DNA of 64,000 bases from Candidatus Latescibacterota bacterium (GTDB taxonomy: Bacteria; Latescibacterota; UBA2968; UBA8231): positions 672,001 to 736,000 of the forward strand of contig CBDETY010000003.1 of assembly GCA_965243025.1 (NCBI GenBank), read 5' to 3'. This document shows positions 45,717 to 46,910 of the stretch, one piece after another. A program made the position numbers and the translations under genes. Positions within the stretch are counted from its first letter, which is position 1. Each line of letters starts with the position of its first letter. A model generated the notes under the pieces. The model did not search any database and was not told the origin of the DNA. It saw only the letters and a program-made list of their open reading frames with translations.

Positions 45717-45880
45717 TTTCTGTTCCTTCGTAGTAAAAGTGGAGACCGACAAACAGGTGGTCCGGAGACGGGGCGTCAAACCGGCCGGCAGGGATGCGGC
45801 CGGTCATGGCGCGCCTGGCCCCTGCAGGCCCGAGTAATGTGCCTGGCCAACGATAACCCATTTCACCGGGAGCGAACGGA

Positions 45881-46354
45881 ATGTCCGCTGAAGTCGCGTA
45901 CACGTCGAAAGTGGGAATAGAGAGGGTGAAGGGGCCGCTGCGGCGCGCCACCCTGCCCGTGGAGCCGGAGCCGGTGCTTTTCGGCGTTCACTCCGAGGTC
46001 GCCGAGCATTACGGGGTCGATCTCGACGTCGTCGAGCCGCACGCCACCACTCTCGACTATGTGGTGGCCGCCGCGGCCGGGTGACTGACCGGAACCTTCG
46101 GGGGCGCGCTGGAGGCGCGCGGGGTACCGGCCGGCGAGGGCCTGCTGTCGTCCGAGGCGACCGGGGAGATCGAGAAGGAGGGGGGAGTGCTGGTCATCAG
46201 GCGGATTCACGTGAAATACCGCCTGAGGATCGACGCGGCGAACCGCGAAAAGGCGGAGCGGGTGATGAAGGCGCACGTCGGCTACTGTCCGGTGGCCCGC
46301 TCGCTCGCCGGCAGCATCGACATCACCACCGAGCTGGAAATGCAGGACCTGTGA
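45881..46354 (+). CDS. OsmC/Ohr-family protein, probable selenoprotein (UGA 46082-46084 = Sec)
   Basis: 157-aa readthrough frame: DYVVAAAAG-U-LTGTFGGAL...HVGYCPVARSL; SECIS-like hairpin follows the UGA. Confidence 0.85.
46085..46130 (+). promoter_or_regulatory. candidate bacterial SECIS element
   Basis: GCGCGC-UGGAG-GCGCGC apical hairpin with loop 25 nt after UGA; lower stem CCGG-A-ACCUU / GGGGU-A-CCGG. Confidence 0.6.
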
Positions 46355-46355
46355 A

Positions 46356-46910
46356 GTGAAGATCTCGCTGATCGGCTACCGGGCTTCCGGGAAATCGACG
46401 CTGGGCCGCGAGCTGTCGCGGCGGCTCGGGTGGCCGCTGCTCGACATCGACCGCGGAGTCGAGGTTCGCTTTCCGGAGGAGACTCTGACCGAGGTGTGGC
46501 TGCGCATCGGCGACCCCCGGTTCCGCGAGATAGAGGCGGAGGTCGTCGAGGAGATGTGCTCCGGCGACGAGTGCGTGGTCTCGTTCGGGGCCGGCACACT
46601 CGGCAGGCCGGAAAACCGCAGGCACGCCTGCCGGGACGCCCTCGTCGTCTACCTCGAGATGAGCGCCGAGGAGTTGTGGGAGCGGATGCAGGCGGACCCC
46701 ATGAACGCCTCGACGCGGCCCAACCTGGCAGGGGGCGGCTTTCAGGAGGTGGTGGAGATGCTCGCCCGGCGCGACCCGGTGTACCGCGAGTGCGCCGACC
46801 TGCTCGTGGATGCGTCTCTGCCGACCGAAAGGCTCGCCGATATCGTCGTCGCCGAGCTCGAGGCTCGCGTGCCGCCGGGGCAGAACGCCGCCGATCAATT
46901 CCAGCGGTAG
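46356..46910 (+). CDS. aroK: shikimate kinase
   Basis: GYRASGKSTLG P-loop, DID, FREIE, SFGAG, RPNL, R...YRECAD. Confidence 0.88.
   Translation: MKISLIGYRASGKSTLGRELSRRLGWPLLDIDRGVEVRFPEETLTEVWLRIGDPRFREIEAEVVEEMCSGDECVVSFGAGTLGRPENRRHACRDALVVYLEMSAEELWERMQADPMNASTRPNLAGGGFQEVVEMLARRDPVYRECADLLVDASLPTERLADIVVAELEARVPPGQNAADQFQR

Follow-up and report, generated by a model that had tools for sequence, protein, structure and literature searches.

Introduction

OsmC-like proteins have figured among the prokaryotic selenoprotein families since the 2005 Sargasso Sea study of Zhang, Fomenko and Gladyshev (PMC1088965), the accessible text of which gives three selenocysteine (Sec) sequences with the motif UXXT, assigned to COG1765. 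The accessible parts of later papers add five Sec sequences and 161 Cys homologs of the GOS (Global Ocean Sampling) study (PMC2398784) and three OsmC-like selenoproteins from a 2007 study of Olavius symbionts (PMC1976440), and such proteins also appear in reviews of 2022 and 2026 (PMC9312934, PMC13188914). A literature search combining OsmC with selenoprotein or selenocysteine returned, in the accessible text of the sources, no experiment on any OsmC-type selenoprotein. Here, we describe a gene at positions 45881–46354 (forward strand) of a 64 000-nucleotide stretch of contig CBDETY010000003.1 of a Candidatus Latescibacterota bacterium; this whole stretch is referred to below as the window and all positions are counted within it. 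The reading frame of the gene is interrupted at codon 68 by an in-frame TGA. We conclude, with a probability of about 0.9, that the locus is a Sec-decoded OsmC-family gene that encodes one selenoprotein of 157 residues. The observations behind this conclusion are the reading frame itself, the family and fold of the product, the conservation of the TGA, the coding constraint past it, the nucleotide constraint on a hairpin that follows it and a genome equipped with the Sec machinery. As a kind, OsmC-like selenoproteins are known and have been catalogued since 2005, and our gene adds a member.

According to the accessible text of the 2005 study, the Sargasso Sea family shares with our gene the PF02566 superfamily, a TGA-coded Sec at the column of the first Cys on a long helix, another Cys close to the C-terminus and, right past the TGA, a bacterial selenocysteine insertion sequence (bSECIS) hairpin. 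The sequences themselves differ: those from the Sargasso Sea read GF-U-LLTQ...GCFAEN, are about 137 residues long and are encoded in A+T-rich DNA with another hairpin sequence (PMC1088965), whereas ours reads G-U-LTGTFGGALEAR...CPVARS and has 157 residues, with an N-terminal extension that is conserved. The U-x-x-T motif of the Sargasso family is absent from our protein, which has U-L-T-G-T instead. Judged from two printed sequences compared by eye only, our gene belongs to a subfamily other than that of the 2005 examples, with an equivalent Sec column. An earlier reading of the window, made from its letters without database searches (the sequence-only reading), had noted that OsmC-like selenoproteins were previously reported; the accessible text of PMC1088965 agrees, the proteins reported there being of this other subfamily.

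The genome of the Olavius Delta-1 symbiont holds two OsmC matches with TGA, one of which (L087/L111) is an ortholog of our gene. The other, L113 (G041:C1173:28868-29116), has an in-frame TGA in the context ..FAL-U-ASMD.. and a second Cys in NCLVAR, and its product shows no significant BLASTP similarity to our protein (E = 5.2). Since our protein, the Sargasso sequences and L113 are distinct from one another, at least three groups within the superfamily use Sec at the first-Cys position.

Results and discussion

Reading frame and gene model

The gene comprises 157 codons plus a terminal TGA. Its frame is opened by the ATG at 45881, reaches the in-frame TGA at 46082–46084 (codon 68, where the family has its first, peroxidatic Cys) and then continues through 89 sense codons to the true stop, the TGA at 46352–46354. 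The residues around the internal TGA are AAAAG-U-LTGTFGGALEAR, and the second Cys, the presumed resolving residue, is encoded at codon 136 (TGT, 46286–46288) within CPVARS. The sequence-only reading had described the 67-residue open reading frame (ORF) with its 89-codon continuation, the context AAAAG-UGA-LTGT with the second Cys in CPVARS, a GCGCGC-UGGAG-GCGCGC hairpin with its loop 25 nt downstream, and a shikimate kinase gene (aroK) 1 nt past the stop. The letters of the window bear out all four statements.

That reading had also expected standard gene callers to split such a gene. The default ORF listing contains a 67-residue ORF at 45881–46084, and the longest same-frame ORF past the TGA has 55 residues (46187–46354), so the split is real. 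It has also reached the public databases. The ortholog in a metagenome-assembled genome (MAG) of KSB1 is recorded at NCBI in two pieces (P0127/P0128, in the cluster of P0097): MCH8873500.1, a hypothetical protein of 66 residues that ends before the TGA, and MCH8873499.1, an OsmC family protein of 90 residues that begins at an ATG right past it.

Conservation of the TGA codon

TGA occupies the Sec column in all 164 orthologous loci that were read, from many phyla. The 40 other genomes closest to this one include three with the gene (two from the same genus, the third from a different genus of the family), and all three carry TGA. Within the phylum, this genome included, the gene is present in five of 168 genomes, with TGA in each of the five. 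The best 80 of 535 relatives in species-representative genomes all have TGA at the column (76 recognized by motif and four by inspection), as do the best 80 of 591 relatives in JGI metagenomes (77 by motif and three by inspection). The best 80 genome orthologs carry the names Chloroflexota, Desulfobacterales, NC10, Rokubacteria, Nitrospirota, Acidobacteriota, Gemmatimonadota, Poribacteria, KSB1, Binatia and Actinomycetota (among these last the isolate Haloechinothrix halophila), together with the Olavius Delta-1 symbiont.

Two phyla were surveyed more broadly. In 301 genomes of Acidobacteriota, 37 of 37 matches hold one TGA, the column not having been checked one by one. In 301 genomes of Actinomycetota, one TGA is held by 33 of 38 matches, three of the 33 being from genomes flagged as unpublished. 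The five stop-free actinomycetotal matches, at 40–44% identity, have TGC (four) or TGT (one) at the column, in the context VAG-C-LIGTFGG. Cys codons in these homologs set against TGA in the orthologs make a Sec/Cys pair, which is the usual criterion for a selenoprotein. In the order from which the database protein P0058 derives, two of 201 genomes matched, both with TGA.

The downstream half of the gene behaves as coding sequence. In six pairwise comparisons with orthologs at 65–92% identity, the ratio of nonsynonymous to synonymous change (pN/pS) is 0.23–0.39 past the TGA and 0–0.25 before it. The values past the TGA argue that this half is under purifying selection at the protein level.

The best match outside the phylum is in a Chloroflexia MAG (L030) at 73% identity, and the ortholog from the other genus of the same family is 74% identical. 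In the phylum, selA scores over its cut-off in 131 of 168 genomes, the five with our gene among them. The restriction of the gene to those five against the wide occurrence of selA, together with the 73% match in Chloroflexia, hints at horizontal transfer.

Selenocysteine machinery and sequence verification

The genome that holds the window (6.8 Mb in three contigs, 96% complete) contains selA (533.7 bits; cut-off 267.9), selB (320.2 bits; cut-off 242.25), selD (361.8 bits) and a tRNA-Sec (69.7 bits) with the anticodon TCA, the last two likewise above their curated cut-offs. The selD gene lies outside the window (G000:C3:31883-32806, locus L016) and contains exactly one in-frame TGA, in the context ..KTCGU..; from its sequence, the SelD of this genome is itself a predicted selenoprotein.

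Besides a look for the Sec machinery, the sequence-only reading had proposed an alignment of homologs at the Sec column and a search of reads for TGC or TGT at this codon. The first two turned out as described above, with all four components found and TGA in 3/3 near relatives, 80/80 genome loci and 80/80 metagenome loci (the best 80 of each). For the third, independent assemblies were compared. One run contains a 3.8 kb contig that is identical over the whole stretch compared and may be the source of the sequence, and contigs from three other studies align at 90–99% likeness. Among the differences listed for four runs none falls at 46082–46084. The runs that hold this stretch are mostly sponge and marine metagenomes.

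The depth of coverage over 46078–46131 climbs from about 6 to more than 100 in runs X1 and X5, because short contigs from other members of the community share a 42 nt core that spans the UGA and the hairpin. The loose ends of the contigs under this peak continue like the Caldilineaceae-type orthologs L092, L094 and L106.

The candidate SECIS hairpin

The hairpin GCGCGC-TGGAG-GCGCGC occupies 46104–46120, inside the codons for G-A-L-E-A-R, with arms at 46104–46109 and 46115–46120 and the loop UGGAG at 46110–46114. It starts 19 nt past the UGA and its loop lies 25 nt past it. The stem consists of six G–C pairs plus a U–G pair (6–7 bp) and the loop has 3–5 nt. According to the accessible text of the 2026 review (PMC13188914), the bSECIS consensus has an apical loop of 3–9 nt, a stem of 4–16 bp, a minimum free energy (MFE) of −7.5 kcal/mol or lower, and a G as first or second nucleotide of the loop (in most cases within N1-G-[G|U]-N-N2), with the loop 16–37 nt from the UGA. 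The hairpin agrees with this published bacterial model in all four respects: the sizes of loop and stem lie within the ranges, UGGAG fits the loop pattern, the spacing is 25 nt, and the MFE is low enough. The 60 nt that follow the TGA fold with −26.9 kcal/mol, and the 23 nt hairpin windows of the 164 orthologs fold with −8.3 to −16.0 kcal/mol. The suggestion of a SECIS-like element in the sequence-only reading therefore stands.

The synonymous sites provide a further argument. At the hairpin codons G75, A76, L77, A79 and R80, the entropy of the fourfold-degenerate third positions is 0.47–0.88 bits, compared with 1.07–1.96 bits at 58 other sites of the gene that encode conserved residues. This lower synonymous entropy indicates a constraint beyond the needs of the peptide, and it is a stronger argument for the hairpin than covariation is.

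Several results weigh against the reading of the UGA as a Sec codon or limit its support. The sampling of orthologs is biased: the peptide patterns used for retrieval included GTFGGALEA, the sample leans to close relatives, and the genome sets overlap. In the seven-pair stem, 96.3% of the cells are in standard pairs across 150 distinct sequences; the changes seen are compatible with wobble pairing only (G–C to G–U in 42 sequences, C–G to U–G in 19, with a closing pair of U–G or U–A), none of the seven pairs shows a double, compensatory change, and each of 500 shuffles attains the pairing observed, which makes the shuffle control uninformative. Given the missing double changes and the outcome of the shuffles, covariation is no proof of the hairpin. 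The RNAalifold consensus has just 4 bp in a register shifted by two, and about 20 of the 164 orthologs, those of the GGYGCCCTTGAGGCN type, break pair 33–41 and can pair only in a shifted register. The fold energy of the 60 nt segment is not distinctive at this G+C content (z = −0.34 against shuffles). The control with Cys forms is weak as well, since the same window in five high-G+C Cys forms gives −4.8 to −13.2 kcal/mol and overlaps the range of the Sec forms. At the RNA level, the metatranscriptome run X19 contains a 268 nt contig over 45816–46086, with ten other letters and three gaps, that ends 2 nt past the TGA, and a second piece looks foreign; consisting of contigs and with carry-over of DNA possible, this is at best weak evidence, and no proof, of transcription or read-through.

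By itself the hairpin is not remarkable in DNA of 66–70% G+C, the content here. The pattern GCGCGCN5GCGCGC is seen once in the 64 kb window, where 0.19 copies are expected, and it turns up one or more times in 17 of 100 shuffles. What lifts it above chance is that the TGA, the reading frame and the synonymous sites of the hairpin are all conserved across the orthologs. In the accessible text of PMC13188914, bSECIS elements of different families are usually unlike each other. Ours departs from the general model in being embedded in a nearly invariant GGALEAR peptide and in being near-identical across phyla.

The GGYGCCCTTGAGGCN type of hairpin has the loop CUUGA and is found mostly in Dehalococcoidia/SAR202-like records, often with Met after the Sec (examples are L063, L066, L070, L075, L102, L108, L153 and L180; alignment A3, columns 28–45).

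In the decoding that we propose, the hairpin at 46104–46120 would be bound by SelB carrying Sec-tRNA(Sec) when the ribosome is at the UGA (46082–46084), Sec would be put in as residue 68, and the terminal UGA at 46352–46354, behind which no SECIS-type hairpin was noted, would end translation. Binding of SelB and the actual insertion of Sec are steps that we infer from the features above.

Family, fold and proposed function

The sequence-only reading had taken the gene for a member of the OsmC family with UGA in place of the catalytic Cys, and the product fits this description, as do the TGC and TGT codons of the distant homologs. The read-through product matches Pfam OsmC (PF02566) with 55.8 bits (cut-off 27.5) over residues 58–151, on both sides of the TGA. 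An AlphaFold2 model of the 157-residue product, built on 58 sequences, has a mean pLDDT (predicted local distance difference test score) of 96.6 and a pTM (predicted template-modelling score) of 0.89. A Foldseek search with this model against the PDB gave 63 matches at E ≤ 0.001, and those listed are OsmC, Ohr or OsmC-like entries save for a few untitled ones from structural genomics. First in order stands 2onf, followed by Deinococcus Ohr, Thermus and Escherichia coli OsmC and Chromobacterium OhrB. In the model, residue 68 sits in the long central helix 57–79, and Cys136 is invariant in the 58-sequence alignment.

The best structural match, 2onf, is Ta0195 of Thermoplasma acidophilum, an OsmC-like protein of unknown function (E = 2.1e-9, template-modelling scores TMq 0.79 and TMt 0.87, r.m.s.d. 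2.3); it is 14% identical to our protein and has Cys rather than Sec. The Cys-based organic hydroperoxide reductases of the Ohr/OsmC group (1usp, 1nye, 6ebg and 1zb9) have a similar fold (TMq 0.64–0.73) and the same arrangement of two redox residues, the first sitting in the central helix and the other close to the C-terminus. They differ from our protein in having Cys where ours has Sec, and sequence identity is just 11–22%. The likeness drawn here is one of fold and of this pair of redox residues.

Ohr/OsmC proteins work by a two-Cys peroxidase cycle. By analogy, our protein is probably a hydroperoxide reductase with Sec68 as the peroxidatic and Cys136 as the resolving residue, the role of the latter being that of its counterpart in OsmC/Ohr. 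Sec68 would be oxidized to a selenenic acid during thiol-dependent reduction of a hydroperoxide, Cys136 would resolve the selenenic acid into a selenenylsulfide, and a thiol donor would re-reduce the latter. The peroxidase activity, its substrate and its reductant are what we infer from this kinship.

The most substantial alternative accepts the selenoprotein and gives it another task, as a different thiol/selenol redox protein or a sulfur- or selenium-transfer protein on the OsmC fold. The product scores 31.1 bits with the NCBIfam model of OsmC proper (TIGR03562), below its cut-off of 85.8, and 18.6 bits with that of the SACOL1771 peroxiredoxin subfamily, below 166.15. A profile of the family finds a single match among PDB sequences, 2onf, at E = 0.0022, which marks a remote subfamily, and the function of 2onf itself is not known. 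The Pfam match does not reach the conserved N-terminal part of about 57 residues, and, as said, the comparison with Ohr/OsmC covers the fold and the redox pair. All of this would suit a protein of another function. Yet in its fold and in its pair of redox residues, including where they are placed, the protein agrees with Ohr/OsmC, and a search of the whole genome gave no OsmC-family match besides this gene. We therefore hold a role other than hydroperoxide reduction to be unlikely, though less so than the alternative readings of the UGA. The gene model restores to the genome its only OsmC-family gene, and with it a likely enzyme of peroxide defence that would otherwise be fragmented or missed.

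Database records and other readings of the UGA

Among the 120 best database homologs, the residue at the Sec column is W in 95, C in seven, L in two and S, G and R in one each, and 13 were not matched by the motif. At face value, the many W entries speak for UGA being read as an ordinary residue, Trp, Cys or Gly, through a changed genetic code or near-cognate suppression, the hairpin then being a by-product of the GGALEAR codons; that the hairpin is placed in a peptide of strong conservation and lacks compensatory changes would suit this as well. The DNA speaks against it. No TGG occurs at the column among 160 loci, and two W entries, P0040 and P0055, are 96–98% identical to loci L179 and L126, in which the codon is TGA (tblastn, code 4). 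No identical pair was found between the database proteins and the loci translated with TGA as W. From these sequences, the W entries are most simply explained as TGA read under the Mycoplasma-type code 4 by gene callers working on short contigs.

The code of the genome points the same way. No internal stop occurs in selA or selB, and the selenoprotein gene and the neighbouring DHDPS-family and PhyH genes all end in TGA, so TGA is no general sense codon here; selD has just its one. All parts of the Sec machinery are encoded, forms without TGA have Cys as the homologous residue, and the hairpin carries more constraint at its synonymous sites than the peptide calls for. Reading of the UGA as an ordinary amino acid is accordingly very improbable. 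Still less probable is plain termination at 46082, with a 67-residue peptide and an untranslated downstream frame (a pseudogene, a nonsense mutation or an assembly error): default calling does yield a 67-residue ORF and public databases hold many 66-residue ortholog entries, but TGA is kept at one column in 164 of 164 loci from many phyla, the 89 downstream codons are under purifying selection and complete an OsmC domain and fold, and the full-length contig from another run is identical, with no difference at the TGA among those listed for four runs. Some termination at a Sec-UGA is expected under selenium scarcity.

The remaining records at this column are mixed. Those with C (P0031, P0038, P0042, P0058, P0080, P0084 and P0113) either have a true Cys or are Sec proteins written with C; cluster 1 combines C forms with a truncated member of 66 residues, and the clusters contain many such truncated entries. 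The homologs with L (P0053 and P0078), S (P0103), G (P0110) and R (P0116), of which P0053 is on a contig of 5.9 Mb, may represent a real loss of the redox residue or artefacts of gene calling. The family is thus poorly recorded, with a probably false Trp at the catalytic position in 95 of the 120 listed homologs in addition to the NCBI split into 66 and 90 residues.

A possible separate clade

Beyond the single gene, we raise one tentative proposal, which we consider possible but doubtful. The G-U-LTGTFGGALEAR...CPVARS subfamily, with its N-terminal extension of about 57 residues, might form a separate, individually undescribed clade of the OsmC superfamily that is close to obligately Sec-dependent, that extends over at least ten phylum-level groups and in which a near-identical 42 nt core of UGA and SECIS is interlocked with the most conserved peptide. 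Near-obligate dependence is suggested because TGA is found in 164 of 164 close orthologs read, and Cys forms verified at the DNA level appear only at 40–44% identity. If this were true, it would point to horizontal transfer that happened repeatedly and moved the gene together with its SECIS, and to a reaction in which Cys substitutes poorly. With TGA in every close ortholog read, the family lends itself as a natural example to the question why Sec is retained in place of Cys, and likewise to that of the mutual constraint between a SECIS element and a conserved peptide.

Genomic context

A possible Shine–Dalgarno sequence, GGGAG, is located at 45868–45872 on the forward strand, 8 nt before the ATG, as read from the sequence. 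Downstream, the shikimate kinase gene (46356–46910, forward strand; Pfam SKI, 3e-30) begins with a GTG at 46356, 1 nt after the selenoprotein stop, and this spacing makes co-transcription or coupling of the two genes possible. A DHDPS-family gene lies upstream on the opposite strand and a PhyH-family gene lies downstream in convergent orientation. A scan of the window with Rfam at gathering scores gave no match and a tRNA scan gave no tRNA, a result that is uninformative on bacterial SECIS elements. At its 3′ end the shikimate kinase gene shares 16 nt (46895–46910) with the convergent PhyH-family gene.

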